From NCBI GenBank assembly GCA_905178155.1, contig CAJINV010000015.1:271309-335308 (forward strand): a stretch of DNA of 64,000 nt, read 5' to 3'. Origin of the DNA: Amoebophrya sp. A120. Lineage: Eukaryota > Protista > Dinoflagellata. A program made the translations under genes and the position numbers. Under the pieces are notes generated by a model. It was not told the DNA's origin, ran no database searches, and saw only the letters and a program-made list of their open reading frames with translations. Numbering within the stretch: the stretch's first letter is position 1; every line of letters starts with the position of its first letter. This document shows positions 1,993-64,000 of this stretch, piece by piece.

Positions 1993-4900
1993 TATCCAAG
2001 AAAAAAACTGTGTTAGTGTAAGTCTTTTGGGAAAACAGCATCACAAGTTTGTCTGCCATGGCAGGACAAACTTGTTATGCGCAGATACAAAGGGAAAACA
2101 CATAGGAAGCGAGCCGGTCATGCATGTCGAGCATGACAAGTGTAACTGTTTTGCATCTTCTGCATCACAGATTTACACTTACACAGTTTTTTTCTTGCAT
2201 ATGTACTCCAAAACTGGTAAAACGGTTTCGAACTCCACGTCTTGGCTGACCAGAACGCTCAGGTCGTACAGCCGCTGCAACACAGCATTGATTGTGTTTT
2301 TGCTTTATGAATTGTAAAAATGTCTGGGTCTGGAAGATTGCCAGATTTGTCATGCTAGTCTGGCATGACTCTGAACTCTGTATTGCGTGCCCGCGAAAAG
2401 GGCTTTCTACCTGTCATGCAAAAACGCAGTCTCTCATGCGGATTACGCAACTCTAAACCACGGAAAAACTTGTCATGCTGGACAGCGCATTACAGTGAGC
2501 TCACTCTTCCCTTTCTTGCATCACAAGTTTCCAGACCCAGACATTTTTGCATTTGATATGCTTTTCGGGGAACTAGAGCTCGACTTCTTCGCGATAATCT
2601 CTTCCAACCCGCAATCCGCAAAGAGGATCAAATTCTTATGGGACTTTCAAACGTAACATTCTCAACTGCTACATGCATTTGTCATGCAGAATCACGATCA
2701 TGCTTCTCACGATCAAGCTTCTTCGCATGAAAAGTTTTCGACAAACTAAATAGCATTACAATCTGTGCCAAATGATCTGTAATGCACCACGCGCGAGCAG
2801 GTCCCCCCTTTCACTTTTGCCATTGTTGCATTACAAATTCATGTAACAATTGAGAATGTAACGTTTGAGAACGCCATAATTCTTGATCATTTCCGCCGAC
2901 AAATCCATGGGGCGAGACAGCATGTCGCAGTACGCAATTTGCAACTCCTGCTTGTGCTTCTCGATCCTGTTACGTTCCTCCAAACTCCTCTGCGTTTGTT
3001 CCCCAGCACGTGCTGTTTGTTCAGAACCACTAGTGCTGTTACCCCCTACCATCTGCTGCAAGAAGTCCCCGGCCGGCGTTTGCCCACCGGCAAATTATCA
3101 AATGTAAAAATGTCTGGGTCTGGAAGATTAGAACTTGTCATGCTAAATCTGAAGCAGGGAAAAAACTGTGTTGCATGATTGCCAAAAGTTGTGCACTTTT
3201 GACCTAGTCGGGAGGCAGTTTCTCATGCAGGATAGGCATTAGAAAGGACCCGCAGAACCTGTCATGCTATGTCCTACATACCACACCTCATGGGTCATGG
3301 AAAATATGCATGACAAATCTAGAAATCTTCCAGACCCAGACATTTTTACATTTGGTACAAATAGTCCTCGTGCAACTGCGGACATGGAGTCACCAAGAAG
3401 GCCGAAAAGTGACTCATCCCGGCTTTGATTCTCCACGATCTTCAGTTGGAAGACGTTTTGGGGAAAAATTTTCCGCATGTTCTTCACGATATCAAGTGCA
3501 AATATGTCTCGGTCTGGAAGATGCGCGTGTTTGTCATGCATCTTCTCGTGCTGGACGACCACACTCACAGATGGTCTGGAATGCACACAGACGCATGGTA
3601 AGTTGTGCGTCAAGCGCTACGTAAAAAAATCAAAATAGGAATCCCGAACATGCTAAATCCTAAAACCCTAACTGCGTCGGCCACGGAACTGTGTCGAAGC
3701 GTGCCTTTATTTGGCGTTCATGCAACACAGATTTTTGTGCGATTCAAATTTTGCATGACAAGTTGCATCTTTCCAGAGCCAGACAGATCTGCAAAAATGC
3801 ATAAACAAAGTCCTGATACAATTTCCCGCGTGACCAGATGTCGGACCGCAGCGACAGCTCTTCCATTTGTTGCGTTTTTCCGTTTTCCAGGGGAACCTCG
3901 ACAATCCGCGTCTGCAAGGCGCCGGCGGCTTGCAGAAATTCCACGCCGAAGTTACGGAGGAAGCCGTGCCGGTGGAGATTAATCAGGTAGATGGACATTT
4001 GCGGTTTCGGGATTTGGCCGCCTCTACTCGAAGAAGAAAACATGCCCCCTGCAAATGTTCCGCTGCGCATCTGGTCTTCCCACACTCTTGCACACTCCTC
4101 TGCGACAGCGCTCATGTCCATTTCGTTTTGCAGGGCGGCCCGCCACAGCTGGTTTTTCAAATCCATCGCTTCTTTCAACGCCTTTGCTTGCTCGGGCCCG
4201 CCCGGTTGGTAGAATTTCAAGTCCAACTCCCTGTCAATCACACCGGAGAGCAGTCCTGCCTCGTCAGCGTCGGGCCCGAGTTGCAAAATGGCATACTGCT
4301 TCCGCAAAAGCCTGTCATTTTCAAACTTCTTTTTCTTCTCCGGTTCTGGGCTGAGCAACTCACTGTCCTTATTTTTCACCTTCTCGTCCCATTCTTGCGC
4401 ATATTTGTCGCCCCACTCGATGATCTCGGCGTGCACAATCTCCGCCATAGAGCTCAATTCCACGAGCGACACCTCGGCGTCAGCCGCGAGGGAAATCTTT
4501 TTTGCCGAGGAACTAGCAGTGGACACCGGAAACAGGACCGTGTTGAAGAGCTTCAGTGTCTCTCTGCAGTGCTTGCGCTGCCACGGCTTCTGGTTCTTTT
4601 CCTGCATGATTGTCGCTTCGGCATGATCTTCTTCGACTACACCGTTCGCCTGCACAGTACTAGTCGCTACGGTGGTCGTCTGGTCGCAAAACGCTAGCGA
4701 TTTCAACAGCGCAGACGATAACAGAAGACTTCTCCGCTCCTCATCGCTCGTGGAGGTTGGCAGCGGAAAGCGGGTCACCAAGCGCGTGTCGAGTTGCGAT
4801 GCGCCGATTTCCGGAGAAATAGGTCCTCCACCCCGGGAAGTACTAGACGTAATCGTGGCGTCAAGAACATCTGGCGACGCTTCGAAGCTGCCTGGCCGGG

Positions 4901-7900
4901 TTCCGGTTAAGCGCAGGTTGAGGATGGTCTGCACGCTCCGCCAGAGCTTCTGCACGTACTCGATGGTTTTCGTGGTGGAGTGGTCCTGTTCCAGCCGTCG
5001 GGCGGTCTCGTACATGGAGAGAGTCTCAAGATTACTGATCTTCTCCCGCTTTTCGCGCTCCGCCCGTTGGGTCTCTGTTTCCGGGGGCGGGTCGTCGCCA
5101 CCGCCGCCAGCACCAGTAACAGATCGAATTTGTTTCACGAATGCCGGCTTCGCAGCATCAGCGGCGTCACCAGCTGCTTTCAGCGTTTGAGAACCTAATT
5201 TCTCTCCCATTGTGCGAAAAAGAAAAACCCATCCGGTTGTCGTCTCAGCGGGTTTATTTTTCGCCGCTGAAGCGCTTGGCGTCATGGGCTTGGAAGTACT
5301 TTTTTTTACCGGGGACGCACTCCCTTCATCGGGAACACCATCTTCATCATCATCATCACCAGACCCCGCGTTCATACTCATGTCGGCAAGATCGGCAGCC
5401 TCTTTTCTTCTCGCCATCTCCTGCATCAGGAATTTCTGCTCTTTCCGTCTCTCCTGCTCCCGAAGATGGGACAACACATTGGAGTACTCGCGAATCACTT
5501 CGTTGCCCAGAGGCTCATCCAACACTAGGTCATCGGACGAGGTGACCGCCATGGAGATTTTGGGCACGAAAAACTCCGCCAGCACCTTGCCCCGGAGTCT
5601 TGCATACCGGTCCCAGGATTTCGTGCACTGATTCTGCTGTTGTTGTACCGCAAGCGTCGTTTGCAGCTGCGGTCCCTCGTTTCCTGTTTGCTGCATTTGA
5701 TGTTCTTCTGTCGTCCGACGGCTCATCTGTATCTTTTTCTGCATATTGACCACATGTTCCCCGAACACCTTCCCCAAAAACTCCGACTGCACCGTTCCGG
5801 CCACCGGTGCGATGCTCAGGATCAGCTGCCGCAGTTCCTGGAAAATCTGTCCGGCTTTGTCGCCCTCAATCTTCGAAGCGGCGGCCGAGTTTGCGGCTGT
5901 GGAAGGGGAAACGGTAGCCGCGGACGCTGCGGAGAGACTCGTGGCGGATAGTCCGCCCGTGGTCTGCTCCAACGTGAAAAGTAGGGAGACGATTGACTCG
6001 ACCAGGTGAAACAAGGCCTCCGTAGACCGCACATCCAAGCGCAACAAATCTGCCGCGCCGGCGGTTGAAGCAGAGCCACTGTTTGATGCACCGGGTGCAG
6101 CTCCTCCTCCACTCGGGCTGCTGGGCATCTCTGGGGAAGGAACAGGGGACGTTCCTGCATCGTCTTCGTCGGAATTATCGCCTTGGGTGTCCTCCAGGTC
6201 GTCATCTTCGCCGATTATACGCGGACTGAGGTATCCTGTGTAAAAACGTCCCCACCCCATAGTCAAGATGGGGATTTTGCAACACAAACCTAGGAGTTTT
6301 GGGAGTCACGCATGACAAGTTGCGCTATGCAGTGTAGTGCAGGTTAGCAAGTGCAGCCGCATCACAGATTCACACTCATCTGCTCATCCTGTTCACAGCA
6401 TCACAAATTTCAAAACACGATTGGAAATGGCTTTCTCTCTCATGGGGATGCGCATTACAAGTCTTCCTGTCTTTGCAAATCTGCATTACAACTCTGGTGT
6501 GGGTACGTTTTTACTCAGGATATGAGGGCCGGGATATTCATATTTCCCGTTCGCCCTTGCGGTAATGTCAAAGATCCAGTTGCTTTCGGGCCGCGTCTTT
6601 TCGGACTAATTGCCTCGATGATTCCCTTATCAAATGCAAAAGTGTCTCGGTCTGGAAGATTGCAACTTGTCATGCTCTTTTTGGACTCTACTAAACAAAT
6701 TTGTGTTGCACGACCAGCAAGAGGGGCACAGTTACAGTTTGTGCTACACGGGCAGGGCATTTCTCATGCGGAAGGTGCATCAGGGCGCCCTCTAAAAGTC
6801 TGCGATGCTAGGCCATGCATTACAGGCATCATGGGTCATGAGATATATGCATGACAAGTCTTGCATTCTTCTAGACCCAAACATTTTTGCATTTGATATC
6901 CCTGGTGGGTCATATCCTCGAGACCGTCCATTGAGATTCCCATGGACCTCGGCATTTCTTGAATCGGCGTCATTACATTCGTGCGCGGGATGGGAGTCGC
7001 CGGACCCATAGACGACGCTGCGGCACTGTAAGCAGGGCTTTGTTGTAGTTGTTGTGCCGCCAGTTGACGTTCTCTCACAAGCGCGTGGTCAATAGAATCA
7101 CTCCTGGGCAGAGACCCCGGTTGGTTGATCTGCGATTGCTGGAAAGAGCGCTCGGTTGTAGTTCCACCCGCGGAAATGAACGTTCGCTCAACAGGTTGTA
7201 CTTGTTGCGGAGGTTCTTGTTGTTCCACAGTCCGTTTGCAAATCGTTTCGACCTGGCTGCGCATCATCGGGATGCCGATTTTCAGAATTTGCGCGAATTT
7301 TTCAAACAGGAAATAGGACCCGTGCAAAATGTTCTGCTTCCGTTGCTCGATCATGACGCGCAGCAAATGCAACAACCTGTCCGTGGACTGCAAGTTCCAG
7401 TTGGACAAAGTGTGCGTGTTGTCAAGCCGTGGTAAGGCTTTCAACGTACGGTCGAGAAACGCGTCAATCACATCTATCATGGAATCCGGGATCGAGCGCG
7501 ATTTGTTCTTCAGGTATTGGAAAAAGACCGGCGTGGATTTCTTCTGCGAAATCCTTTCTAATTCAATAGAGGAGATCGGCTCGTGGGTTTTGAGAAACAG
7601 CGCCTTCTGCAACTGGGTTGCTAAAACCACTTCTGGATTATTTTGCGTCTGCTCGTCAATGAATTCTCCCTGGTCGCCGGCGTCGCTCTGTGGCGTAGTG
7701 TCTGTTTCCTCCATGTTTATGCCGCCTGTTGGGGAGTTGGCCGAGTTCACACGTCCCACTCCTCGTTCCGAGGAAGCTGACAGACTCGAGCCAGAACGAA
7801 TGGGGAGGCGGATTCCTGCAGCCCGCTGAGATTGTTCTTCGGATGCACGACGTGTAACACCAGTAGAACCGCCACTGAGCGTACTCTGCACCCGCTGCTC

Positions 7901-10900
7901 CAAGCGTTGCGCTTCCGACGTGTTGTAGTCCGGCGACTGTCCGGCTTGGGAAGATTCCTCTTCTTCGTCCCCCTCGTGGATTGGAAAGGTCCCCTCACGC
8001 ATCAACGCGTCCGCGCCTGCGGATTCCGAAAATCCGCGGGCACGGCGGCCCTGCGGTGAACTGTCGTCGTTGTCGTCATCTGCCGAAACACCGCCTGGAT
8101 TTTGGCCTCCCGCCCCGGCGGAGGAGGAGGAGAAAATCACATCCGTCGCTCTCGCCGCGTGCTCCATCTGTCGCGCGGCCGCCTCGAATTGCAGCAGTCG
8201 AGCTAAATCCATGGAAATTTCCGGTAATTTCACACTCTGGCTGTTCTGCGCCGCGGTAGCAGCTGCTGGGAGCGGGAATGCGGAGGTGGTTGCGGTTGTA
8301 CCAAGTCCGGAACCACCTGCAGCACTGCTTCCCGCATTAGAAGTATTCAACCCGGCAACGGTGAACGCATTGTTGGTCACGTAGGACATCAAAATCTCAA
8401 AAGCCAGTCTCCTTTCCTCCTTTTTCAGCGCGTAAATCTTCGTATCCCGCATGTTCATCATGCCGGATGACGCAGCGCCTCCTCCGGACGAGGAAGACAC
8501 CGAGATCGTGACGGCTGCCCGTTCTAACAAAATGTCCTTTAAAAACGTCAACGCAATCTCCGGGAGAATGAGATTCAATTTTTGAATCTTCGCGATTCGG
8601 TCGTTGAAGAGTTTTTGAGTGGGGGAGGTGGTGGATGAAGAGTGTTTTAATACAGTGTCGCCTTCTGTTTGTTCATCATCCACAACATTATCATCCGACA
8701 CGTGGATTTGCAACAACTTCAGCAACTCCAACTTCACCTGCCCTTTCAGATTCACCAGGTTATTGCCCCCGGAGTCGGAGGATACTAAAACGACCGCGTG
8801 GATGATCTCCTCCCAGAATTCCGTGGTGAACTTCATGAACGGCAACTTCTGCAAGGTTTTCAGGAATGTGGTCAACTTCTCGCTGTTCCAGAGCAATTCT
8901 AACCTGTGGAGGTCATCCGTGTTCTGGTTCATCTTGTTCTTCTTGTTTCTGGCATTACCTGAGCCCCCAGCGGGTCCGAACGAGGAAGTTCCACCCGCAA
9001 TCGCCATGGCGGCTTTCGACATTTTGCTCACGGAAGACGAGAGCTTGCTGTTGCCGGAAGTCCAGCTAGTAGGGTAGGATGGGAACACTTCTTCGCGCAA
9101 GACGTGCCGGATGATCTCGGTGTATTGCGGTAGCGCCTCTTCCAGAGACAGGAGCCACAGCGTCGGCTCGAGATAGGCGGATTGGCTCGCAATCTCCCGG
9201 GTCGTCGGGACCGCAGTGGCTTGCAAGAGATAGTGCCACACGTACTGCCGTTCCCGTCTTTCCCGCTCTTTCATAGCGGCTTCCTCCGCACTGAGTGCTG
9301 CGCCGGCTGCCTGCGAAGATCCTCCTCGGCGAGCGGCTGCAGCGTAGTTATCAGCGTTTGATTGCCTACTATTCCCCTTCTCCTGTCCAAAGTCCAAGGA
9401 ACTCTGGTTGATCAAAGTCCGCTGCAGGTTCGTCCGCATCGCCAAGACCAAAGCGGCGCGGCGCTGCGCAAATTGGTGCAAGGAATCGATGGTGGCGAGC
9501 TGCCCGCCGAAGAAGGTTTTTTCCGCCGGTTTGTTGTTCGCGATCAGCGCCGCGGTTGTCAAATGGTGTCCGACGGGCAGGTTGCTGTAATCCACCTCGT
9601 CGTCCGCTTTGTTTCCGTCGCTTTTCACGATGTCGACGATGTTCATGTCCATCTCAATGACCGCAGCGGACGGGAGTTTCGCAATACCGGCCTCCTGCGT
9701 CCCCGATACCACGGACCGGATCACTTCGGATTTTTCGTAGGATTTCCACTTTGCAATTTCCGCGACTTTGGCGAATTTCTGCAATTTCTTCTGCGCTTCA
9801 ACGAAGATCAACTGCTTCAAAACGAACTGCTGCAACCCCGTGATGATCTGTTTGGACATCTGCAGCGCCTGCTTCTCGATCTCGTTAAATTCGTGTCGCG
9901 CTTCCCGGGTTTTCAGAATCGAGTGCTGGCGGTTCTGCTCCAAGATCGCCAGCAGAGCGTTGTTTGACTCGAAGTATTTCGCTTCGACATCGTCGAGAAA
10001 GACGATGGAGGTGGGAAGAGCTGTACTACCAACTGACGCCTGATGTAGTTGTTGTCCCGCCCCACCAGGGTTCGAACCCGAGGGCCCTTGCTGTTGCTGC
10101 TGACCTGTTGCGCCACCTTGCTGCGCATTACCGCCAATCACGGCCGCCTGTTCCCTCGCAGCCATGTTGTTGGTGCAACAAGCCGCCGTCATGATTGCGC
10201 TTTCCAAGTCTTCCTTATCTTTCGCCACAGCGTCGCGCCAGTTGTTCTCCAGCTCCGCGTTGGGAGAACCGGTAAGAAGCGTGCGGAAAAGCGGAAAGAG
10301 CTCAAAAACCACCGGGTACTCGTCTTCCTGATCAATTTCCTCCTCTGCCCCCTCACCAATATCCTTCGCGTCACCAGCGATTAGACCGGGCGACCTTTCT
10401 GCTTCGCTGGAGGCCGTGGACTTGATGCTGTCTTTTCTGCTGAAGCTCTTAGGAGTGGAGGTGGAGCCGTCTCCAATGCGAGGATCAGACGCAGAAGATC
10501 CGGTTCGCTGTGCCGTCGGGGTTGGTTGGCCCGAGGAGGAAGACGCGCTGCCGATGCTTGGCTGGGCCGTCATTTCCTGTCCTCCGTCTACATCCATGGC
10601 ATCTTCGGGGGCTCCGTCTGCATCGTACTTAATAACTTGCTCCGCCCCAGATTCGCTAATGCTAACTTTCCTCGCAGCTCTAGTTGAAGGTGTTCCCTGG
10701 CGGGGCGAGGCGGCTGGAGCGGCTTCCTCCCCTATGCTGGGTAAAAACGTCCCCGCCCCAGAGTTGTCACGCAAATCTGCATGCCAAAAAAGTTTCTCAT
10801 GCGGAGCCCCATGAGAAGCATTCTCTAGTTGTGTTTTGGAGTTTGTGATGCTAGAATCAGCATGATGTCCTAGATCTGTGACGCTGCTGAGCTAGCGAAA

Positions 10901-52900: not shown

Positions 52901-55900
52901 CGTTTCCGATATGGGGAGGGGGGGTCTTTCCTTTCGATAGCCGATGGTGATGGGAGACGTCTTTCTCCCAGCTTCAAAGCCCGACCGAGCGTGTCAGTGA
53001 CCTCGGTTATCAACCACCGCTGCTCATCGGTCAGCCTGCTAGAAATATGGATTGCAAATGTGTCTGGGTCTGGAAGGATGCAAGATTTGTCATGCACATT
53101 TTCCATGCCTCCTGACGTCCGTGATGCATGTTGCCCTAGCATCACAGATTTTGTGACCTATGCTGCATGAGAAATGCCGTCTTGCCGTGGCAAAAACTGG
53201 ACCTCTTTTGCTGTTCATGCAATACAGATTTTCGTAGTATCCAAATGCAGCATGACAAGTTACATCCTTCCAGACCCAGACATATTTGCATTTGGTAGGC
53301 GCTTGCCGAATGGGAATCCACGTGGTCCATATCCACGGCGGATAAATTATATCCTGTGCAAAAGTATCGCACTCATATTGCAATCATGCATATACAAATC
53401 TTCACTTCTTTTTAAGGTAGATCTGCATTACAAATTTTGTTTCTCATGCTGAGGAAATTTGTAATGCATTTATACGAGTACGATACTTTTGCAGTTCATA
53501 AGTTCATGCCCTGTGCGTGTGCCAGCTGTCTTAGGCTTAGCTCAAGCTCTTTCCATTGTGCCATCATGAGGCCAAATTGGCGTCGAGTCATGAAGGGATT
53601 GGTAATCCCTTCACCACTATTGGTGAGTTCCTCGGCCATCATCCCGGTGCTGATTCGTGACTGCCAACTAAAGACTTTCGCAGCTTCCTGACCTAGACCA
53701 GGAAAAGTCTCTTCGTGTGCCCCCGCACACGTTTTTAGCAGCTGGTCTATCGTAAGAAAAAATCCCCCCTCCCCACATCGAAAAGGAACGCCTCAGTGAA
53801 TTTGTGATGGTGATTTGTGACCACAAATGAATCGCGTTTGTCTTGCAAGAAAGCAATGGCATGGACTCCGCCCCATTATGCAGGCGTTTTTCCTACAGCA
53901 CAAACGTTCCTCATGCTAAGTGCCTAGGCCAAACCTTCTGTGCATTGGGATCGTATGGGCCTGCAGTCCTATACTGCAAGACAAATCTGATTTGTGTACG
54001 CACATCCAGCATCAGAAATTTCGTTTTGATGTGGTGAGGGGGGATTTTTCATTTTGATATTGTCGATGGCGTCACTTGCAGCCGCAAGATCCTCCGCAAC
54101 CTCTTTCGCGATCGGCATGCGGACCGATGGTCCGGAAGTACGGCCTGAAAAACGGAGCAAGACTTCAAGTCTTTCTCCTAATTTCAAAGCCCGACCAAGC
54201 TTGTTAATCGCCACGGTTAGGAACCACCGCTGCTCAATGGTCAACCGCCGCTTCTCATTAGCTTCTAGCTCTGGCTCGTAGAATATGGGCGCAATTTTTT
54301 CCACCATATTCCGATTGTCAACGAAGAGGCGAAACATGTGTGTCAGCAGCAACTCCGCCGCACTGGGCGCCTCGGTTTCCTTCAAAACGCGAACGCTACC
54401 CGCGCTATTACTACCCCCGCCGTGAAGTACTAGACCTGGTCCTCCGGCGCCGTTGTCATTAACAAGGTGAAAAAGCAAATCTTCCGCGAGAATTTCTGAC
54501 AGAGCCTTCTCCACCAGTCGCTCTATCAAATGTAAAAATGTCCGGGTCTCCTGGAAAATTCTGAGATTTGTCATGCATGTTTTGCATGACCCAGGATGTC
54601 TGTAATGCACGACCGCGCATCACAGATTTTGGGCTGGCTTCCTGATGCCTACTCCGCATGACAAACGCCCTCCCCGCGTAAGTAGCACGGACTAGACTCC
54701 TCTTGCTGGTCATGCAATACAGATTTTTCTAGAGTCCAAAGTTAGCATCACAAGTTCCAATCTTCCAGACCCAGACATTTTTACCTTTGATACGCTCCCC
54801 GTGGTCCCCACTATCCATGTCCACGATGGTACCCATCCGCGCACCCTCAATCTTGCCTGCTAACGCCGTGGTGGTGATTTTGATCATGGGTGTATCCTGA
54901 GTAAAAACGTACCCACACCAGAGTCAGGATGAGGATTTTGCAACACAAACCTAGGAGTTTTGTGAGTCACGCATGACAAGTTGCACTCTGCAGCGTAGTG
55001 CAGGTTAGTAAGGGCAGCCGCGTCACAGATTCATCTGCTCATCCTGTTCACAGCATCACAAATTCCAAAACACGATTGGAAATGGCTCTCATGCGGATGC
55101 GCATTGCAAGTCTTCCTGTCTTTGCAAATCTGCATTACAACTCTGGCGTGGGTACGTTTTTACTCAGGATAGGGTGAAGATTCTTCAGCCGCGTCTCCCC
55201 GTTCGGCCTTTAGCTTTTCAACGTGCATTGTGTCCATGGCACCGGAAACCACCTCTTCCCGGTAGGATTTCTCCTGCAACAATACCAACAGTAGGTGCGG
55301 CACCGCGTGGAGCGCGCCGTCGACAGACTGGTCGGCCTGTTGCATTTTCTCGACAACATTCTGCTCCAGCCTACTCAGCCCGGAGATGTCTTCCTCCATG
55401 GCACCGGGAAGAGCTTGAGCGACCTTTTTCTGTGCGGTCTCGCAATTATCTCCGCTGAGAAGGTTGAGGCCTGCAGGTAGATTTCTCGGCAGCTCGGGGT
55501 AGAAGAAGCTTTCCCGTAGCTTGAAGTTGTCGAGAGCGTGCCAACCCCGCACGAACCAAGTTGCGACGCGAATCAGCTTCTTCATCTTCTCAAAGGAGAA
55601 CTGGATCAGGTATTGCTGGTCCGGAACGTTGTTCATAGTGGCAGAGGCATAGCCACGAGATGAGCCACTACTACTTCTCACAATGCGCTCGAACGCCACC
55701 AACTCCTTTGTATCTGCGTCGTAAACTTGCAGCACCGTGTGTGGCAGCTCGTCGATGTCTAAGAACCTCTGCTGTGCCGCGGCAGCACCTACACCACCCG
55801 GTTGTTGAGGTGCCGATCCTCCGCCGCCCCCGCGAGCACCGTCAAAAGGAGTGGAGATTTCGGCGGAGCTGGTGGGCTCTGGCTGCTCCGGCTGCTCATC

Positions 55901-58900
55901 CTCCGAGTCCTCAGATGGAGAGTCCTCATCTTCTGAGTCGCTGGGCTCCGACGAGGAGTCGGTGCTCCCCGGTGATTTTTTCTTCTGCTTCTGTTTGTCT
56001 TTCTTCCCACCGACCGCCTTTTTACCGGCACTGGAGGCTTGTCCCCTCGTGCTGTCGCTTCCAGCTCCTGCGGGTGTTTGTGGAGATGAACGCGGGTCCA
56101 TGTCCACATCCGCGTTTATCTCTCCTGAAACAGCTGCGGTCTGCCCGTCTTGTTGATGGTCCTGCATAATATGATCGCCTCCACCCAGTGCTGCACCACC
56201 CCCGAGGTGGAAGGCAGAAGTGCCTCCACTACCACCCTGCAGCGCCGCGGAGATGCCGATCTGCACGAGGTCTAGAGAAGAGCTGCTCTTCCGTTCCGTC
56301 TGCTGCAGAATCAGCTCACCGAGCAATCGTGTCAAGCTAGTTCTGCTCTTTTTGCCGCGGTCCTGCTTTGGCGCCTCAAACTCCTCTTTCAGCACGGAAA
56401 TCTTGGTGTTGTCCATGCTGGTAATGCCACCTGCGATGTGATCATTTGTAAAAACGTCCCCAGCCCAGAGTCAAGATGGAGATTTTGCAACACAAACCTT
56501 GAAGCTTTGGGAGCCACGCATGACAAGTTGCAGACTGTAGTGTAATACAGTTTAGCAATGGAAGATGAAGCCGCATAGAAAAGCCATCTCCTTATACTGT
56601 TTACAGCATTACAAGTTCCAAAACACAATGGGAAATGCCTCTCATGGGTATGCGCATTACAAATGCTCTTGTGCTTGGAGATGTGCATGACAACTCTGGG
56701 GTGTTTTATGTACTGGAAAAGACCAAATATAATGACAACTCTGGGGTGGGGATGTTTTTGCACCGGATAGATGAGATCCAAGAACGAGTCCGTCAAGTAG
56801 CTCACGACCGCCTGATTGCACCCGGAGGTTGTAGAGGGGGAAGAGCCACCAGATTGAGCGCCGGCAAATGACGGGTCTGCCAGGTAGGTTTGCAAAGCGG
56901 AAACCAGGCTCATATGCGACGACGCATGTTGAAAGTTATTCCCATCGCTCACGCGCGGAATCTCGAAGGTTCCGTCTTCGTTATCGCACGAAAAAAACAG
57001 GTTTAGTGTAACTTTCTATGGAGGAATAGCATCACAAGTTTTCTCTGCATGACACAGAAAACCTGTCATGCGTAGCTAGTACGTGAAAACACGCGCGAAA
57101 AGAGCCTCTGATGCATGTCCAGCGTGACAGCTGATATTGTCTTGCGTCGTCTGCAATACAAAGTTCGACTTACACAGTTTTTTTCCTGCGATATTCGTTC
57201 CTCGGCGTGTCGTACAACTCATTTTCGCCGTATCAAATGTAAAAATGTCTGGGTCTGGAAGAATCCGAACTTGTGATGCTAAATTTGGACTCTAAAAATA
57301 TCTGTATTGCATGACCAGCAAGAGGAGCCACATTTGTGCTACGCGAGGAGGGCATTTGTCATGCGGAAATGGCATCAGGAAGCCTTCCAAAAATCTGTGA
57401 TGCTGGGTCATGCATTACAAGCATCATGGGTCATGCCAGACAAGCATGACAAGCCTTGCATTCTTCCAGACCCAGACACTTTTGCAATGCATACGCCGTC
57501 GGACTCGCCACCGTCGTTATCTGACTCGTTTTTCTCTTCCTCTGCTACCATCTTTTGCACGGATTTCGCTACAGCTTCTTTTCTGCTCTCTTTCTGCTCG
57601 GCGTCGTCGGCGGCCGTGTTGCCAGTCGCATCGGCGGTAGTGGCGAGATGGTCGCCAGCGGTACCCGACTGCCCTCCCATCTGCATCGCCGAATGTCCGT
57701 GGCCCTCTTCATCGTCTTCATTTTCGCTATTGTCGCCATTCTCAGTCATATTCTCGTCATTATCGCTGTCCCCAGGCGGAGTTTCATCCGCTGCTCCTTC
57801 ACTACTCCTAGAAGGGGCATGATTACTGCCTTGGCGCTGATCGGAAGACAGCCCTGTAGCCGTAGCGCCGTCCTCCTCTGTGTCACCGAACATTGAACTG
57901 GGGTCCCGCACTCTTGGTTCCACATCCGGCGCGGGTTGTACTTTCACCGGCGGGATAAACTCTTTGTACTTGTTATCCGAAGGAAAAATCCCCCCTCCCC
58001 ATATCAAGAAGGTGCTTCTCAGAAAATTTGTGTTGCTGATTTGTGACCACAAATCCTTGTGTCTTGCAAGAAGGCAACTCTACAGTCTCCGCCGCACTAT
58101 GCGGCCAATTTGTGACGTTACTTGAGCAACAGCATAGACATTTGTGATGCTAAGCGTCCACGTCAGAAGCTCTGTACTCAGGCACGGCGTATGCCTGCAG
58201 TCCTCTACTGCAGGACAGCTCTGATTTGTGTACACAAATCCAGCTTCAGAAACTCCGTTTTGATATGGGGAGGGGGGATTTTTCCTTTCGATACTTGTAG
58301 ATTTTCCGGGCCCCCGTCTGCGCTCCGCCAGTAAGAAAGGGGAAGGAGTGCGTGCTCATCAAGCCCGTGTTTGAACTACTTCCGCTCGCGTGGTCTTTCT
58401 GCTCGGGCGCCGGTTCGGCCGTGACTTTTTTGGTGCCAATGACTTGGTCGTACAGGCGGAGTTGCAAAATCGCGCGCTGCCGCAACGTGAACATCACCGA
58501 GTTCAAAGTTTCTTTCAAACCCCCAGTAGAACCAGAGTTACCTCCACTACCCGAGGGCGACCCCGTAGCGTCGAACGTGACCGGGGTTTGCGCCTGCAGC
58601 CACTGGGCGTGTAAGAAAACGGACTTCGCGATCTGCTTCTGCAGAGCCTCGTGCTCCAGCTTTTGTTGGTGAGCAAAGGCCGGCGAAATCATGAACCCAA
58701 GGTTCTTTTGATCATCCTCGTGCCGGACTCTGCTTTGACGTAGTTGCATTTGTCCACGCTTCAACATCCAAGAACTACTAGAAACCGCTGCAGATGCTGA
58801 CCGTCTTGCCAACCAGCTGGTAATCACCGGCGTGTTTGAAGCTAGGAAGACGTGCGCCAATTCCGCAACTTCCTCGTTCTGCAATAATGAAGACACTTCC

Positions 58901-61900
58901 ACGGTGGCTCTACTTCCCGCCGTGGTTGCACCAGAAAAGGCGACGTCTACTTGGTCGGTCGCGTGCGCGACGTGGCGCTGCAGAATGTAGAACGCATCCG
59001 TGACACGGGACTCCTCGGGGGCAACGCGGAAGAAGGAGGAAGCAAAGGCATCCATGCTTTCGGTGTTCCGGATATCAAAGGGAAAAATCCCCCCACCCCA
59101 TATCGACATGGAAATCTGTGACGCGGGATCTGTGTACACAAATCGGCTCTGTCTTGCAGTAGAGACCTGCAGACAGATACGAAGCGGGATTAAGGGTGTT
59201 TTGGTGTAGGCCCCTAGCAAGGTAGAGACATTCTCTGTAGGCCGGACAGCATGACAAATTGCCTGCAGAACGCGGCGGGGTTTTTTTAAGTATTTGTCTT
59301 CTTGCAATACAGAGACGATTTGTGACCTCAAATCAGCATCACAAATTTTGAGAAGCATCCCGTTCTGGTTTGGGGAGGGGGAATTCTTCCTCACAATACC
59401 GGAAGTGACGCGTGAACTCGAGCTGCATCGCCGCGAAAACCTCTTTATCCTCTGCAAAAGTATCGCACTCGTATGAGTGGCAGTGTTCGTTCGTTCGTTG
59501 TGGATCGGCTCTGCCGACCGGGTAACCCAACGCCTTGCATACAAATGACCGACTTAGGCGAACCCCGTTGCGGGACGTTGTATGACAGATCTATCATCTT
59601 ACCTCAGTCAGCATTACAAATTCTATTTTTCCTTTTGCAAAAATTTGTCATGCTCTTTGGGACTAGTACGATACTTTTGATGCACTGCATATTCTTCTCG
59701 CTCCCTGGTCAAATCTTTGGCAATGAAAAAGTTCACCTTCGGTTCGAAAATGCTCGTCGCACTGCCCTGGTGCAGCTGTGTACTGATTTGCTCGCGCTGC
59801 AGCGCGGCCGTGGAAGGACTTGCGGTTCCTCTGGCTTGCTGTTGTTGTTCAGCATCGCGCTCAACATCGGTGCTGGAGCCTCCGGAGGTTGACGTTCGTC
59901 CCATCCACCAGCTTCGTCCTGCGCTCGAGGCACCAGCCTGCCCAGGACTACCTGCTGACCCCCCACTCCTATCAAATGCAAATATGTCTCGGTCTGGAAG
60001 CTAGCTCAAGCTTGTGATGCTGTTTGGCGAATCATGTGAGCGCCTTCATTGACAGCTAAGCGTGACAAGTTTTGGAGTTGCTATAGTGTTGCCTATCTGC
60101 CTGACAAACTGCGTTTCTGCATGATAGAGAAACTACTTGGCTTTTCGGCGGCGTGCATGACAGATCGTTGAGAGCCATGCTAGCCGTGCATGACAAATCC
60201 TGCATTCTTACTTCCAGACCCAGATCGATATTTGCAAACCATAACTTCCGCCCCCTCCCGACTGCTTTTGCGGCCCCTTTCCGTTCTCGGCAAAAACCTG
60301 GTCGCGGAGGTTTCGCACAACAACGTCAAAGTCCTGGGCTTTCAGCAGCGATTTAAACACCGCACTGCGGGCATTGGTGAAGGTGTGAAAGATTTTCAGC
60401 GCCAAAAGCTCGTTGGAAAGTTTCGCTTCAATCAAGTCGCTTGTCTTATCAAATGTAAAAATGTCTGGGTCTGGAAGATTGCAACTTGTCATGCTAAATC
60501 TGCAGCATGCAAAAATCTGTGCTGCATGATTACCAAAAGTCGTCTAGTTTGACCAAGTCGGGAGGTAGTTTCTCATGCAGGATAGGCATTAGAAAGGTCG
60601 CGCAGAATCTGTCATGCTAGGTCCTGCATTCCAGACCTCATGGGTCATGGAAAAGCAGCATGACAAATCGCGCATTCTTCCAGACCAAGACATTTTTACA
60701 TTTGATATGTCTTCCAGTGGTACAAAACTTCCGGCCGGACCGTAGTGGCGATGATGCTGTCGGGATTGTTGTTCAAGAAAATCTCATCGAAAATGCCCTT
60801 CATTTCCTGTTATCAAATGTAAAAATGTCTGGGTCTGGAAACTTGTGATGCTGGTTGGCGTCTCATGATGAGGTTACAAATGCTGGCTCAGCATGACAAG
60901 TTTCTGAGCTCCTAGGTGTTGCCTATTCTGCATGACAAACTGCCCTTCTGCATCACAGAAAAACGGAGCTCTTGGGTAACGTGCATGACAGATTTAAGAG
61001 TCATGCCAGACAATCATGACAAACATGAATTCTTCCAGACCCAGACATTTTTACAGTTGATACCTGTTGGCGCTCGATTCTTTCCCGCATGTTCGAAGAT
61101 GAGGTCGTCGGCAAAAACGCCTGCGCANCTTCCAGACCCAGACATTTTTACAGTTGATACCTGTTGGCGCTCGATTCTTTCCCGCATGTTCGAAGATGAG
61201 GTCGTCGGCAAAAACGCCTGCGCAGAGGACGAAAACGGGGAACTGCTCGGAAGTAGGGGATTCAAGCGGCGAAGTGTGTCCAGGGGGATGAGGAAATACC
61301 GTTGCAGCAAACTGTTCCGCGCGATGGTCGAGACGATTTCCGGTCGGTACTGCACGCGTAGCAGTTTTGGCTTCGGATTATACATGTTGATGTGCTGCGA
61401 GTTTGCACTTGTGCTTGTCCCAAGCGACGCATTCAGCATATCCCGATGCTTTACGATTTGCGCAAACTCTTTCTGCTTTTTGCGCAGCAGTTGGTGCATG
61501 TTGTAGTGGAAAACTTTCGCTTTCGGGATCTTCTTCGCCGATGTCCTGTCGCGAGACGGCAGGCCTTGTTGTCCTCCATCAGGAGCTCTATTCCTGCTAG
61601 TACCCCCAGCTCTCGTCGCCGTGCCAGCTGCAACACCGTCTGCTTGGTCGGCCGAGTCGGAAGACTTTCCCAGCACAATGTGCGAGAGCAAGTTGGGCAG
61701 TACGGCATTGGGGTTCAACATGGAGGAATGGCCGCTAGTAGAGGTGGCAGCTCCACTGTGCTGCTGCAAAGAATATTCTTCAATGACGCGGCGGTCACCC
61801 TCACCCATCTCGAGATTCAGACGCAGCATCTCGGTGAATTTGCCCAGCAAGTCTTGCAGGACCGGCAAGCCGGGCTGCTGGTCCTCTCGTGCAAGAAAAG

Positions 61901-63742
61901 TAGACTGCTTCGTCCTTTTCTGGCAGGAGTAAGCATCTGTGCACGATGCAGCTCCTGTTCCAGCGTTGAGGAAGAAGGCGTGCAACTGGGCTTTCTTCCT
62001 CTCGAAAATCAGTTTTTGCACCGCAAACTTCTTCACCGCGCGTTGCATACGGCCACGGACAATCGGCAGCATCTCGTGCGCCACTCTGTTCGACTTCTTG
62101 TCGTCTGCTGTTGGGTCATACCACGGTGATTCAGCTCGCACGTTCCAGTCCCTTAGCAAGGCTATGGGAGTGTCGAGTTTTTCCGCCCAAGCCGCTTTAT
62201 TTTTGATCGTCTTTTGCATTGTCTCCTGTTTTTCCATCACGTCCACTGCGACCTTAAACAAGGTCCTCCCGAGCGCCCGCAGCTCGTCCTCGGAACACCA
62301 GCGTCCTAACGCCGCTACTTCGCCGGGGGACAGGCGCACGGCCTCAGTCTGAGTTTCCAGAAATTCTCCGAGACGCTTCAGCTCTTCAGCCTTCACCTTT
62401 TCGGACTGTTCTCCAAATTGCAGCGAGTTAATAGCGGGCTTCTCAGCACGATCTCCAAGGAGGGCCCGGATGTCGAGAAGCATCGCCAGGCGTTCTCCGA
62501 CTCGTTTCAGGGGTGAGGATTCCGGGGCGAAAGCTGCTTCTGACTCGGGAGTGAGCGCGTCCGCGACCCGATAGCGCTGGAGCCAGTGGGCACCGGTAGA
62601 GGAAACGAACGGGATGTACTTATTGTTCCTGGCTTCCCAGTGAAGGACCTCATTGTTTGTTGGGTCGTTTTCTCTGATGGGCCCGAAAAGGTCATCAAAC
62701 ACACCGAAAATTATGGATGCGTCAGGTTTGAAATGGTCAAAGTTGAAATGGTTTGTCATGCATAAAACGGATACCAGTTAGACCTACAGTTTGTAGTCGG
62801 CGCATGACAAATTTTCCCGGTCCTGGAAGCGAGTCTGTCATGCGGTTTAGGGCAAAAGAGCTGCCTTCTGTCATGCTAGTCAGCAGTCCAACTCCTGACC
62901 CTTATCAGGACTACAATCTGCCTTCCGTGCGTCCTCTGCAATAGAGTCACTTTTTGAATCGCATTTTATGCATGACAAACCATTTCAACTTTGTCGATTT
63001 CAACTCTGACACAACCATAAAAATCTCTCTGAGATTCTCGACCCGACTCTCGGAAATCGCCTTCTGGAGGGCCGTATCAAATGCAAAAGTGTCTGGGTCT
63101 GGAAGATAATTACCAGGTTTGTCATGCATATTTTGGATGACCCATGATGTCTGTGATGCACGCTCTAGCATCACAGATTTTTAGAGGACTTTGCGATGCC
63201 TCTGCCGCAAGAGAAATGCCCTCTCCGCGTAGCACGAACTGGAGTTCTCTTGCTGGTCACTCATGCAATACAAATTTTTTCAGAATCCAGAGACAGCATT
63301 ACAAGTTTAGAACCTTCCAGACCCAGACATTTTTGCATTTCATAGGCCCAACCCAGACTCTGTGCGGCATGCCCGACATCCACATCTTCCTCGGAGGTCG
63401 ACGAAGTTTTTCGCAGCCTGGAAGTCGATCCTCTCTGCTATGGCGTTCTCAACTGTTACACTCTCAACTGTTGCATGGACTTGTGATGCAAGAATGGGAA
63501 AAGTGAAAGGGGGGGCATTACGCGTCTTGCATGACAGATTTGGCAAAGATTATCATCCTGTTTCGTTTGGCCCTTCCAGGATTTGTCACGCAGAACAGCT
63601 TGATCGTGTAGACTAGATGATCATGGTGCTTTTGCATGAGAAATCATGTAACAGTTGAGAATGTAACATTTGAGAACGCCATATCTGTCGAGTCGGCGAG
63701 GCTGCGTCCTCTTCCACATCCAGGAAAACATCTGCGCCAGCA
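270..63742 (-). CDS. Giant 5'-partial multi-exon gene, ~14,190 codons after splicing; unknown function (helical/coiled-coil blocks alternating with S/G/A/Q/E/D-rich low-complexity linkers)
   Basis: All long ORFs are on the minus strand and run into TIR elements. The frame stays continuous and stop-free when each element+5 bp, the GT-AG intron 49594-50847 and the 97-nt N-gap duplication are removed. First in-frame stop is TAG at 270-272 (3' end uncertain). Confidence 0.85.
1993..2201. mobile_element. Introner/non-canonical intron, family D
   Basis: TIR tatccaagaaaaaaactg / cagtttttttcttgcata; DR tgtac. Confidence 0.9.
2306..2558. mobile_element. Introner, family A
   Basis: TIR core aaaaatgtctgggtctggaa; DR tgctt. 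Confidence 0.9.
2637..2878. mobile_element. Introner, family C
   Basis: TIR tatgg..tcaaacgt.acattctcaa; DR attct. Confidence 0.9.
3096..3357. mobile_element. Introner, family A
   Basis: A-type TIR (right end ggta); DR caaat. Confidence 0.9.
3490..3803. mobile_element. Introner, family A (degenerate)
   Basis: Decayed A-type TIR; DR cacga/aacaa; frame restored. Confidence 0.8.
3804..6231 (-). CDS. Large internal exon of the giant gene
   Basis: Core of ORF 3744..6287, bounded by TIR elements. Confidence 0.9.
6232..6522. mobile_element. Introner, family B
   Basis: TIR tatcctg.gtaaaaacgt.cccac.cca; DR tgagg. Confidence 0.9.
6628..6898. mobile_element. Introner, family A
   Basis: A-type TIR; DR tccct. 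Confidence 0.9.
6899..10732 (-). CDS. Large internal exon of the giant gene
   Basis: Core of ORF 6836..10774. Confidence 0.9.
10733..11011. mobile_element. Introner, family B
   Basis: B-type TIR; DR tcccc. Confidence 0.9.
11062..11276. mobile_element. Introner, family D
   Basis: D-type TIR; DR ctgga. Confidence 0.9.
11277..14084 (-). CDS. Large internal exon (contains a predicted coiled coil)
   Basis: ORF 11132..14029 extends open to 14084. Confidence 0.9.
14085..14349. mobile_element. Introner, family A
   Basis: A-type TIR; DR gtttc. Confidence 0.9.
14350..16802 (-). CDS. Large internal exon of the giant gene
   Basis: Core of ORF 14231..16957. Confidence 0.9.
16803..17127. mobile_element. 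Introner, family A (strongly degenerate)
   Basis: Remnant gggtctggaa / ttccagacgcagac; DR tgccg/tggtg; frame restored. Confidence 0.7.
17540..17833. mobile_element. Introner, family B
   Basis: B-type TIR; DR ttttg. Confidence 0.9.
17960..18212. mobile_element. Introner, family A (inverted near-copy of 2306-2558)
   Basis: A-type TIR; DR ctttg. Confidence 0.9.
18295..18529. mobile_element. Introner, family C
   Basis: C-type TIR; DR tccgc. Confidence 0.9.
18640..18921. mobile_element. Introner, family B
   Basis: B-type TIR; DR gaaga. Confidence 0.9.
19027..19355. mobile_element. Introner, family E
   Basis: TIR tat..ggaaaa.cccccctccccatat; DR accgc. Confidence 0.9.
20040..20248. mobile_element. 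Introner, family D
   Basis: D-type TIR; DR ttttt. Confidence 0.9.
20249..21527 (-). CDS. Internal exon
   Basis: ORF 20225..21478 extends open to 21527. Confidence 0.85.
21528..21794. mobile_element. Introner, family A
   Basis: A-type TIR; DR ccgtc. Confidence 0.9.
22087..22336. mobile_element. Introner, family A
   Basis: A-type TIR; DR ttcgg. Confidence 0.9.
22394..22673. mobile_element. Introner, family B
   Basis: B-type TIR; DR ccggc. Confidence 0.9.
23273..23512. mobile_element. Introner, family F (long, divergent interior)
   Basis: TIR tat..tgcaaaagtatcgcact; DR gctcc/ggtcc. Confidence 0.8.
24489..24754. mobile_element. Introner, family A
   Basis: A-type TIR; DR atgcc/gtgcc. Confidence 0.9.
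24755..26480 (-). CDS. Internal exon
   Basis: ORF 24337..26454 extends open to 26480. Confidence 0.85.
26481..26787. mobile_element. Introner, family E-like
   Basis: TIR tatgaaaatgaaaaatgcccc / ggggcatttttcattgtaata; DR ggtat. Confidence 0.85.
26832..27082. mobile_element. Introner, family A
   Basis: A-type TIR; DR gaaca. Confidence 0.9.
27269..27428. mobile_element. Introner, family F
   Basis: F-type TIR; DR tcccg. Confidence 0.9.
27429..28520 (-). CDS. Internal exon
   Basis: ORF 27398..28471 extends open to 28520. Confidence 0.85.
28521..28807. mobile_element. Introner, family B
   Basis: B-type TIR; DR tggtc. Confidence 0.9.
28808..30005 (-). CDS. Internal exon
   Basis: Core of ORF 28800..30056. 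Confidence 0.85.
30006..30159. mobile_element. Introner, family F
   Basis: F-type TIR; DR gattt. Confidence 0.9.
30204..30476. mobile_element. Introner, family A
   Basis: A-type TIR; DR ttcaa. Confidence 0.9.
30563..30770. mobile_element. Introner, family D-like
   Basis: TIR tatggagagaaaaaag / cttttttcttttgata; DR tcctg. Confidence 0.85.
30830..31085. mobile_element. Introner, family A
   Basis: A-type TIR; DR gccgc. Confidence 0.9.
31306..31626. mobile_element. Introner, family E
   Basis: E-type TIR (left end cat); DR ggcgg/agcgg. Confidence 0.9.
31627..33969 (-). CDS. Large internal exon
   Basis: Core of ORF 31579..34035. Confidence 0.9.
33970..34294. mobile_element. Introner, family E
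   Basis: E-type TIR; DR tgttg. Confidence 0.9.
34778..35029. mobile_element. Introner, family A
   Basis: A-type TIR; DR ggagc. Confidence 0.9.
35080..35224. mobile_element. Introner, family F
   Basis: F-type TIR; DR tgcct/tagct. Confidence 0.85.
36014..36333. mobile_element. Introner, family E
   Basis: E-type TIR; DR gaggg/caggg. Confidence 0.9.
36869..37118. mobile_element. Introner, family A
   Basis: A-type TIR; DR tttcg. Confidence 0.9.
37170..37314. mobile_element. Introner, family F
   Basis: F-type TIR; DR cagat. Confidence 0.9.
38307..38556. mobile_element. Introner, family A
   Basis: A-type TIR; DR cctgt. Confidence 0.9.
38600..38838. mobile_element. Introner, family C
   Basis: C-type TIR; DR tcatc. 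Confidence 0.9.
38839..41848 (-). CDS. Large internal exon
   Basis: Core of ORF 38726..41956. Confidence 0.9.
41849..43184. mobile_element. Large 1336-bp TIR element/intron, family G
   Basis: ~60-bp TIR tatgg..gtcaacgacgcttttttcaagtatgctga.aatttt; perfect DR tttga; GC-rich interior; frame restored on removal. Confidence 0.9.
43688..43932. mobile_element. Introner, family C
   Basis: C-type TIR; DR ccact. Confidence 0.9.
43984..44266. mobile_element. Introner, family B
   Basis: B-type TIR; DR tgtcg. Confidence 0.9.
45070..45307. mobile_element. Introner, family C
   Basis: C-type TIR; DR aggca/aggcg. Confidence 0.9.
46079..46229. mobile_element. Introner, family F
   Basis: F-type TIR; DR ggggc/tgggc. 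Confidence 0.9.
46276..46537. mobile_element. Introner, family A
   Basis: A-type TIR; DR ctatg. Confidence 0.9.
46538..47578 (-). CDS. Internal exon
   Basis: Core of ORF 46419..47783. Confidence 0.85.
47579..47840. mobile_element. Introner, family A
   Basis: A-type TIR; DR cacag. Confidence 0.9.
47980..48230. mobile_element. Introner, family A (inverted near-copy of 26832-27082)
   Basis: A-type TIR; DR gcgtt/gcgtg. Confidence 0.9.
48300..48583. mobile_element. Introner, family B
   Basis: B-type TIR; DR gtctt. Confidence 0.9.
48655..48819. mobile_element. Introner, family F
   Basis: F-type TIR; DR accgc/tcctc. Confidence 0.85.
48983..49140. mobile_element. Introner, family F
   Basis: F-type TIR; DR cctca. 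Confidence 0.9.
49594..50847 (-). other. Canonical GT-AG intron (1254 nt) flanked by 7-bp direct repeat AGGTACC
   Basis: Sense strand CAAG|GTACCT...GATCAG|GTACC; length is a multiple of 3; joins ..SCRPQ-GT-NRAEG.. in frame and removes stops at 50840 and 49625. Confidence 0.75.
51008..51272. mobile_element. Introner, family A (left tip resembles F/B)
   Basis: tatcctgtgcaaacatgtctgggtctggaag; DR aggac/acgac. Confidence 0.9.
51778..52068. mobile_element. Introner, family B
   Basis: B-type TIR; DR gtaga. Confidence 0.9.
52146..52298. mobile_element. Introner, family F
   Basis: F-type TIR; DR tcgcc/tcggc. Confidence 0.9.
52620..52939. mobile_element. Introner, family E
   Basis: E-type TIR; DR gccga. 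Confidence 0.9.
53046..53297. mobile_element. Introner, family A (DR lost)
   Basis: A-type TIR; flanks agaaa/ggcgc; removal of element+5 still restores frame. Confidence 0.85.
53350..53500. mobile_element. Introner, family F
   Basis: F-type TIR; DR aatta/agttc. Confidence 0.85.
53748..54059. mobile_element. Introner, family E
   Basis: E-type TIR; DR tggtc/ttgtc. Confidence 0.9.
54524..54792. mobile_element. Introner, family A
   Basis: A-type TIR; DR cgctc. Confidence 0.9.
54893..55171. mobile_element. Introner, family B (near-copy of 18640-18921)
   Basis: B-type TIR; DR gggtg. Confidence 0.9.
55172..56439 (-). CDS. Internal exon
   Basis: ORF 55160..56416 extends open to 56439. Confidence 0.85.
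56440..56769. mobile_element. Introner, family B (left end gat; duplicated subterminal segment)
   Basis: B-type TIR; DR gatgt/gatga; atgacaactctggggtg occurs twice near the right end. Confidence 0.85.
56982..57193. mobile_element. Introner, family D
   Basis: D-type TIR; DR ttcgt. Confidence 0.9.
57231..57493. mobile_element. Introner, family A
   Basis: A-type TIR; DR cgccg. Confidence 0.9.
57974..58293. mobile_element. Introner, family E
   Basis: E-type TIR; DR cttgt. Confidence 0.9.
59073..59398. mobile_element. Introner, family E
   Basis: E-type TIR; DR ccgga. Confidence 0.9.
59446..59691. mobile_element. Introner, family F with extra internal sequence
   Basis: F-type TIR; DR ctctt/ttctt; ~90 bp longer than typical F. 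Confidence 0.85.
59970..60243. mobile_element. Introner, family A
   Basis: A-type TIR; DR actcc/acttc. Confidence 0.85.
60447..60707. mobile_element. Introner, family A
   Basis: A-type TIR; DR tgtct. Confidence 0.9.
60811..61062. mobile_element. Introner, family A
   Basis: A-type TIR; DR cctgt; right end is repeated after the N gap (ending 61159). Confidence 0.9.
61032..61224. repeat. Exact 96-bp tandem duplication around a single N (probable scaffolding artefact)
   Basis: 61032-61127 = 61129-61224, N at 61128; removing 97 nt restores the frame. Confidence 0.9.
61160..62711 (-). CDS. Internal exon
   Basis: Core of ORF 61014..62759. Confidence 0.85.
62712..63019. mobile_element. Introner, family H (single copy here)
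   Basis: ~55-bp TIR tatgg.tg.gtcag..ttgaaat...caaagttgaaatggtttgtcatgcataaaa; DR aaaat. Confidence 0.85.
63075..63344. mobile_element. Introner, family A
   Basis: A-type TIR; DR ggccg/ggccc. Confidence 0.9.
63439..63683. mobile_element. Introner, family C
   Basis: C-type TIR; DR tctgc/tctgt. Confidence 0.9.
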
Positions 63743-64000
63743 TATCAAAATGAAAAATCCCTCCTTCCCATATCAAAACGGAAATCTGTGATGCGGGATT
63801 TGTGTACACAAATCGCATTTGTCCTGCAGGGAAGCACTGCGCGCAGATGGCAAGCCCAAGAGGGGGCCTTTTGGTGTAGGGGCCCAGCATGGCAGACGTC
63901 TGCCCTGTAGGCCTTGAAGCATTACAAACCGCCTGCATAATATCGCGGCGGACTCTCTGGATTTGCCTTCTGGCAAGACGGACAGGATTTGTGGTCACAA
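63743..64000. mobile_element. Introner, family E (truncated by window end)
   Basis: Left TIR tatcaaaatgaaaaatccctccttcccatatc and E-type interior. Confidence 0.85.

Follow-up and report, generated by a model that had tools for sequence, protein, structure and literature searches.

A short internal motif shared by the small introner-like families of Amoebophrya sp. A120 as a putative binding site for one protein

The small transposon-like elements in a stretch of DNA from Amoebophrya sp. A120 fall into families with different inner TIR cores, and all of these carry one short motif, TTGT(C/G/A)ATGC or its complement. The motif is probably a double-stranded DNA binding site for one protein that all of the small families need for copying. 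This reading starts from five observations: enrichment of the motif, its pattern of conservation, the spacing of its sites, their strand symmetry and the spectrum of variant alleles. The stretch analysed, here called the window, comprises 64,000 nucleotides.

Exons in the window have a GC content of about 55%, and 72 elements interrupt them: 71 small ones (145-330 bp, 43% GC, 18,111 bp in total) and one of 1336 bp; the last small element (63743-64000) is truncated at the window edge. Placement relied on an automatic finder for 58 elements and was done by hand for 14, among them those at 3490 and 53046, each of which has one poorly placed end. The termini are TAT...ATA, the finder having demanded TA[TC] at the ends, and the target duplications are 5 bp long, with 23 mismatches in 345 positions across 69 window elements. 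Over 13 families the end profile consists of TAT, C or G, six variable bases and an A-run at positions 11-15 (0.71-0.90). Copies within the window families are up to 97% identical. A further candidate at 1357-1681, whose TIRs match at 11 of 24 positions, was discarded as a chance match. Family letters are labels by TIR core and may differ from those of the original prediction.

A giant gene interrupted by small transposon-like inserts is predicted on the minus strand (Table 1). Splicing of the elements is predicted from a reading frame that is restored in silico; controls in which 0, 3, 4 or 6 extra bases are removed leave at most 1,350 codons, and removal of 2 extra bases also keeps the frame. 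Public runs X11, X12, X5 and X7 on 14000-31200, and X5, X7, X9 and X8 on 44300-64000, contain no element-spanning joint among the matches listed, and these cover mostly element DNA and the exons barely. Pfam gives no match for a 1085-codon exon frame (one exon scanned), and Rfam gives none for the whole window. The minus-strand frame reaches 11,502 codons once the predicted GT-AG intron is removed as well, and moving the two poorly placed element ends slightly gives 12,915 codons (to 61147) or about 12,220 (from 273). Nearly all of 273-63741 on the minus strand may be one gene of more than 14,000 codons. The frame is broken at 61063-61164, where a single N (61128) accompanies a duplicated stretch (an element end plus 66 exon bases), probably an assembly join. 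Elsewhere an exon segment is present as a tandem duplicate (52381-52610 and 53560-53750, on to about 54230) with different element insertions in each copy, a possible internal empty-site comparison.

Table 1. Features of the window. F denotes TTGT..TGC on the plus strand and R its complement; single-letter sites with small numbers are element positions.
Feature	Position	Strand	Remarks
Small non-autonomous TIR elements, motif-bearing	span 1993..64000	.	71; TAT...ATA ends, 5-bp target duplication
Host reading frame (predicted)	3417..49624	-	11,115 codons after in-silico removal of 45 elements (6232 to 49140), element + 5 bp each
Family A, subfamily 1 example	2306..2558	+	2347 F, 2378 F, 2411 F, 2431 F, 2470 F, 2518 R; family A has 27 copies in window
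Family A, subfamily 2 example	46276..46537	+	F40 F71 F125 F164 R181 R213
Family B example	22394..22673	+	five sites, single orientation: 22425, 22455, 22504, 22537, 22587; 11 copies, 7 one way and 4 the other relative to gene
Family C example	11062..11276	+	F32 F63 R122 F156; one end inward, other outward; 5 copies by TIR label
Family D example	18295..18529	+	F42 R88 F137 R185; convergent pairs 46-49 bp; 6 copies
Family E example	37170..37314	+	R34 F68 F99; terminal sites outward; 11 copies by TIR label
Family F example	59073..59398	+	F44 F77 R177 R264; 10 copies by TIR label; consensus has three tandem pairs at 32-33 bp
Family H, one copy in window	62712..63019	+	F42 R91 F124 F157 R259; 12 further copies in related loci
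Degraded element	16803..17127	.	TIRs broken, duplication 3/5; two perfect sites kept, 17020 F and 17073 R
1336-bp GC-rich element	41849..43184	.	TAT...ATA ends, 5-bp duplication, without motif
Sole strict motif in predicted coding sequence	44672..44680	-	
Predicted GT-AG intron, 1254 bp	49594..50847	-	GGTACC repeat on flanks; one strict motif at 50787

Strict matches to the motif number 154 in the window (73 TTGT[CGA]ATGC and 81 GCAT[GCT]ACAA), and 152 of these lie inside the small elements. The two in the other 44,553 bp are found in predicted coding sequence and in the GT-AG intron (Table 1). One hundred Markov simulations of element DNA yield means of 1.5, 1.9, 6.1 and 26.6 matches for orders 1-4, with a maximum of 45. 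The original prediction of a motif enriched above background and rare in exons is thus borne out. Of the two places where it had been called almost absent, the 1336-bp element has no matrix site at all (best score 5.4 bits) and the GT-AG intron has one strict match. Variants with T at position 5 occur only twice in the window. Single-mismatch counts define a wider motif, RRAN-YTSTVWTGC-W, in which position 1 is T or C (152/52), position 3 is G or C (152/33), position 6 is A or T (152/25) and position 5 is any base except T; positions 2, 7, 8 and 9 are almost fixed, and an A lies directly upstream. By matrix scan the elements contain 334 sites (17.2 per kb) and the DNA outside them 13 (0.29 per kb); every one of the 71 small elements has at least one. 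The claim that each copy carries several sites holds, for strict sites, in 54 of the 71 small elements, which have at least two, and fails for the 15 with one and the two with none (33970, 53748). Two example sites, 2470 and 2518, were placed correctly, and the first lies at 2347, one base off the claimed 2348. Sites had further been said to point inward just inside both TIRs. Across 11 family consensuses this describes 15 of 22 ends, and the inward terminal sites mostly start 32-33 or 40-43 bp from the end, one turn apart; it does not describe family E or family 10, where terminal sites point outward at both ends, nor B and C, where they do so at one end.

The same families are found outside the window. 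A scan of metagenome contigs with the family-A TIR gave 148 loci (0.5 Mb after merging), all on contigs of one assembly series. They contain these families at up to 97.5% identity and add 338 elements; family sizes in this set are biased, because the loci were picked for the presence of family A. Element-like DNA of these loci (117,797 bp) holds 953 strict sites, compared with 61 in the remaining 382,123 bp, and in two loci (L025 and L022) several strict sites outside called elements fall in degraded elements. The family-A TIR pattern has no match in viral contigs.

Conservation of the motif exceeds that of its surroundings. Across 13 families with 372 copies in all, the base of the family majority is present in 14,738 of 15,865 cells (0.929) at core positions, compared with 31,391 of 41,562 (0.755) for the interior and 0.901 for the TIRs. 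Individual positions differ widely: 0.972, 0.987 and 0.949 at positions 2, 8 and 9, and 1,430/1,980 (0.722) at position 5. Window copies alone give 0.916 over all nine positions versus 0.768 for the interior. Substitutions are also biased, with 511 changes among A, C and G at position 5 versus 29 listed to T, and 191 G/C swaps at position 3 versus 34 transitions. Since the core is conserved over the interior and position 5 is free while shunning T, ancestry alone is insufficient as an explanation, and the constraint has the pattern of a protein-binding site. Simple common ancestry with no such excess would have refuted the original prediction, and the core and position-5 values go against it.

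A neutral relic of an ancestry common to the families would account for their common ends and for layouts that recur under different TIRs (L048 6021-6173 has the layout of E, and L018 505-1608 an F-like one), as well as for the slight likeness between families of the spacers of 32-bp pairs (0.33 vs 0.25 shuffled). The position-specific excess of conservation and the biased substitutions refute it as the sole explanation, and interiors of different families are 0.32-0.58 identical, near the shuffled level of 0.46 +/- 0.08, yet the sites persist; a purely neutral origin is therefore hardly credible. The motif families nevertheless probably share ancestry, and ancestry still accounts for the origin of the sites.

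The arrangement of the sites points to duplex DNA. Phasing was assessed on 11 family consensuses, leaving out families 1 and 8, which are sister families to 0 and 5. Nine of the 11 consensuses contain same-orientation pairs at 30-33 bp, 14 pairs in all (2.2 expected), and opposite-orientation pairs at 15-17 or 46-50 bp number 16 (4.9 expected). The signed cosine at a period of 10.5 bp is 0.536 over 82 pairs, a value that none of 4000 permutations reaches, and is about zero at 10.0 and 11.0; it remains 0.475 for pairs 56-110 bp apart, and the 10.5-bp phasing survives a scan over periods. Treating the 16- and 32-bp modules as rigid units leaves 33 pairs between modules, for which the value is 0.376 (p = 0.0016). 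The families are not independent, which counts against these statistics; restricting the test to a single family from each likely lineage gives p values of 0.004-0.06. Phasing is weak in families B (0.12) and H (0.08). No phasing was detected in held-out single-copy elements (0.07, p = 0.24, n = 20 elements) or in a further held-out set (0.03, p = 0.43, n = 7 elements); many held-out elements carry indels, which would blur phase, although this is an excuse and not a test.

Helical periodicity over 100 bp, together with element lengths of 145-330 bp, would also suit sites that fix the place of a nucleosome, or of some other general chromatin protein, and so favour insertion, survival or copying. 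Nucleosomal DNA has a period nearer 10.2, and the peak here is at 10.5 bp. The avoidance of T at position 5 and the near-invariance of positions 2, 8 and 9 are constraints on particular bases, which further indicate sequence read-out, and a chromatin role of this kind is improbable.

Several side observations concern the structure of individual families. The family B interior contains a conserved short palindrome, TTCTCATG-n8-CATGAGAA, that links a motif site to a weak opposite site (e.g., at 22455-22480). In family 0 (A2), taking loci and window together, 13 copies are shortened between terminal site and element end by a deletion of 9-11 bases, roughly a helical turn, and the two A subfamilies differ by the same amount in this distance (33 vs 42). 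Copies of families 0-5 in window and loci show more insertions of 3 and 6 bases (303 and 105) than of 2 and 4 (82 and 65); only 44 of the 303 3-base insertions scored as tandem duplications in a crude test. At positions 17-30 of the TIR arms in families 0-7, left and right match at 4,039 of 4,774 positions where 3,866 would be expected if they were independent, a weak hint of arm pairing or homogenisation.

Strict sites show no strand bias in the window (73 vs 81, p = 0.57), where all coding is on the minus strand. Strong sites occur in both orientations in 56 of 70 elements and in a single orientation in the other 14 (8 one way, 6 the other). Family B, whose strong sites all have one direction, is inserted both ways relative to the gene. 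These counts bear on an RNA signal for a splicing or excision protein acting in pre-mRNA, a reading that agrees with the restriction of the motif to predicted introns and that could draw on the elements with sites in both orientations. The absence of strand bias and the 14 single-orientation elements speak against it, a 10.5-bp phase is unexpected for single-stranded RNA, and the 1336-bp element, which has no motif, is also removed in silico with restoration of the frame; an RNA signal is thus a poor prospect. The original prediction had proposed a shared site for one trans-acting factor, either a transposase or an excision protein. Its core agrees with the enrichment and the excess conservation, and of its two branches a double-stranded DNA factor of transposition is favoured over an RNA excision protein, by the phasing, the lack of strand bias and the mutated sites, described below, that survive without spreading.

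Sites in opposite orientation might instead base-pair with one another, either in RNA or in single-stranded DNA, and so assist in folding the ends together. In minimum-energy folds motif bases are indeed paired more often (2,011/2,620) than other interior bases (6,462/10,763). Only about half of the paired motif bases, however, have another motif as partner, family B is without a strong opposite site, and position 5 shows no covariation between convergent sites (339 observed vs 337.6 expected in 1,204 comparisons). Convergent sites are therefore not conserved stems, though folding programs often pair them, and this already disfavoured mechanism is very improbable.

The spectrum of variant alleles in six families with at least 20 copies bears on when selection acts. 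At positions 2, 8 and 9, 50 of 63 variant alleles are confined to a single copy, compared with 366 of 1,339 in the interior (p ~1e-16), and singletons make up 1.14% of cells both at these positions and in the interior, where they are undercounted through repeated hits. Damaged sites thus exist and almost never found subfamilies, as expected if the motif is needed for copying and not for splicing. In diverged copies motif and TIR decay in parallel (0.094 and 0.101 at an interior divergence of 0.35-0.45), an estimate that rests on profile alignment of degraded copies and is disturbed by indels and partial matches. The ratio of motif to interior differences at positions 2, 8 and 9 shows no significant excess in close over distant pairs (0.28 vs 0.21, p = 0.14); for positions 4 and 7 and for the TIR it is significantly higher in close pairs. 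A few degraded copies keep perfect sites (16803-17127 in the window and L025 7470-7838). Divergence of the target duplications (23/345) exceeds the prediction from the private rate of the motif, and given this and the undercounted singletons some constraint after insertion is possible. Mismatch in the target duplications did not work as an age clock.

These data also weigh on a second way of linking the motif to splicing, in which a host protein, bound to the motif on DNA, would tag the element for excision from the nascent transcript, and introns lacking GT-AG signals would be defined by the DNA template. Such a mark would explain removal in both orientations together with DNA-type phasing, as well as the perfect sites kept in some degraded intronic copies, and U1 was not detected in Amoebophrya according to PMC7789003. 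On the other side stand the removal of the site-less 1336-bp element with restoration of the frame, the occurrence of private mutations at the invariant positions as often as singletons in the background, and the parallel decay of TIR and motif. A mark of this kind is unlikely.

The two long interruptions of the window differ from the small elements. Near both ends of the 1336-bp element lie related words ending in ATGC, at about 27-35 and 44-52 from the end, which are perhaps a variant site for a diverged factor; its 296-codon frame has no match in Pfam. Only one other motif-less element exceeds 400 bp (866 bp, L022), and the pair fits the idea that the motif is dispensable for long elements. 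L018 505-1608 is a counter-case, being long and yet retaining the array at one end. L071 7014-7985 and L025 6304-6760 are long elements that resemble it: all three have the shared TIRs and unbroken 5-bp duplications and hold both a motif array and captured cargo DNA. In the L018 and L071 elements, frame lengths and sequences show cargo-like DNA without a long frame. The longest frames of eight elements longer than 400 bp span 85-289 codons, and the one scanned has no match in Pfam (about 0.56 Mb covered). Neither the window nor the 0.5 Mb of related loci yielded a transposase or an autonomous element. The predicted GT-AG intron has, besides its 6-bp flanking repeat, internal repeats (cacagaggtgg), and looks like another kind of introner that reuses its own splice sites. 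At 50843 a contig from run X7 carries 13 loose letters that agree with the exon on the other side of this intron; run X9 has the same 13 letters followed by different ones, so a paralogue is possible there.

A mechanism can be proposed on this basis, in which binding, bending, a role in transposition and the identity of the protein are what we infer. The protein would be supplied in trans, and several copies of it would bind along one helix face of a 110-330-bp element, with spacings of three turns for tandem pairs of sites and of 1.5 or 4.5 turns for opposite pairs. DNA is stiff over about 150 bp, and the bound protein would bend or scaffold an element too short for looping unaided. Bending or scaffolding would help to pair the two TAT ends for a transposase, likewise supplied in trans, which would cleave and then insert the element with a 5-bp stagger, leaving the 5-bp duplication. 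A copy whose sites are damaged would persist as an intron but no longer spread. The protein may be the transposase itself or its partner, at somewhat less than even chances; a host DNA-bending cofactor is a less probable candidate. The inner TIR cores are family-specific, and a single transposase is not an obvious explanation for them. It is also conceivable, though doubtful, that one protein has two roles, scaffolding the ends for transposition and marking the element on the template for excision from nascent RNA; the phased array would then serve thousands of introners in either orientation, with splice-site signals unneeded.

The elements correspond in anatomy to the introners described for strain A120. 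The latter are about 240 nt long, occur in many families and by the tens per gene, and have non-canonical boundaries (PMC7789003; PMC12130899). Their inverted repeats consist of TAT, seven variable bases and a run of at least three A, with direct repeats of 3-5 bp (PMC7789003). The TAT, the A-run, the 5-bp duplications and the families within coding sequence all recur in the window. Published accounts, in the portions available, describe terminal repeats only, with no internal motif, spacing rule or selection pattern (PMC7789003; PMC12130899), and PMC11282704 mentions TIRs and duplications only; the literature searched shows neither an internal motif nor phasing for these introners, though figures S19-S25 of PMC7789003 may show the motif. 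The 1,954 introner families of A120 looked unrelated and no transposase was found, and that source argues against general transposase-mediated mobilisation in A120 and states introner movement and splicing as open (PMC7789003). Most of 19 of the 58 A120 entries are classed as TIR DNA elements of unknown superfamily, one family having integrase-like frames (PMC12130899).

In form the small elements are MITEs, or non-autonomous TIR DNA transposons: they are short, have TIRs and a target duplication, are without coding capacity and occur in many copies. Subterminal motifs of the Emigrant MITE are bound cooperatively by Lemi1 proteins (PMC1636448), internal sites are described for the P element (PMC7776569), and subterminal repeats of hAT elements are summarised in PMC6188088. 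As in those systems, several short conserved sites are repeated inside the element near the TIRs; they would likewise be needed together with the TIRs, in non-autonomous elements served in trans. The differences are that here one motif is common to families with differing inner TIRs and runs through the whole element, that it follows a 10.5-bp phase with opposite orientations in antiphase, and that no cognate protein is known. Helically phased 9-bp motifs have been proposed to nucleate end pairing at the left end of IS1535 (PMC6188088), and there too the motifs begin tens of bp from the end. Members of the IS607 family, to which IS1535 belongs, use a serine recombinase and lack the TIRs and target duplications present here, and their motifs recur directly at intervals of about one turn, compared with three turns here, or 1.5 and 4.5 in opposite orientation; the resemblance is one of working only. 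Ends of the form TA..TA (TAYGG..CCRTA in rust fungi) are characteristic of IS3EU, whose duplications are usually 6 bp (PMC10045372; PMC12730594). The small elements share the TA..TA termini of IS3EU/GingerRoot, and families D, G and H begin with TATGG; membership fails because the duplications are 5 bp and not 6. Ginger-type ends are TGT..ACA, as opposed to TAT..ATA here. Duplications of 4-5 bp are reported for Ginger2 (PMC10045372; PMC12730594).

Since copying appears to be what the motif is for, the elements must depend for their splicing on the ends and the 5-bp repeats. Should the double role be true after all, the definition of introns from DNA by one protein would be a new way of marking introns. 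A single conserved and phased motif suggests that one mobilising system, not many, lies behind the small families; it would provide an exact bait for the missing protein and a tag for old introners that have passed beyond family likeness.
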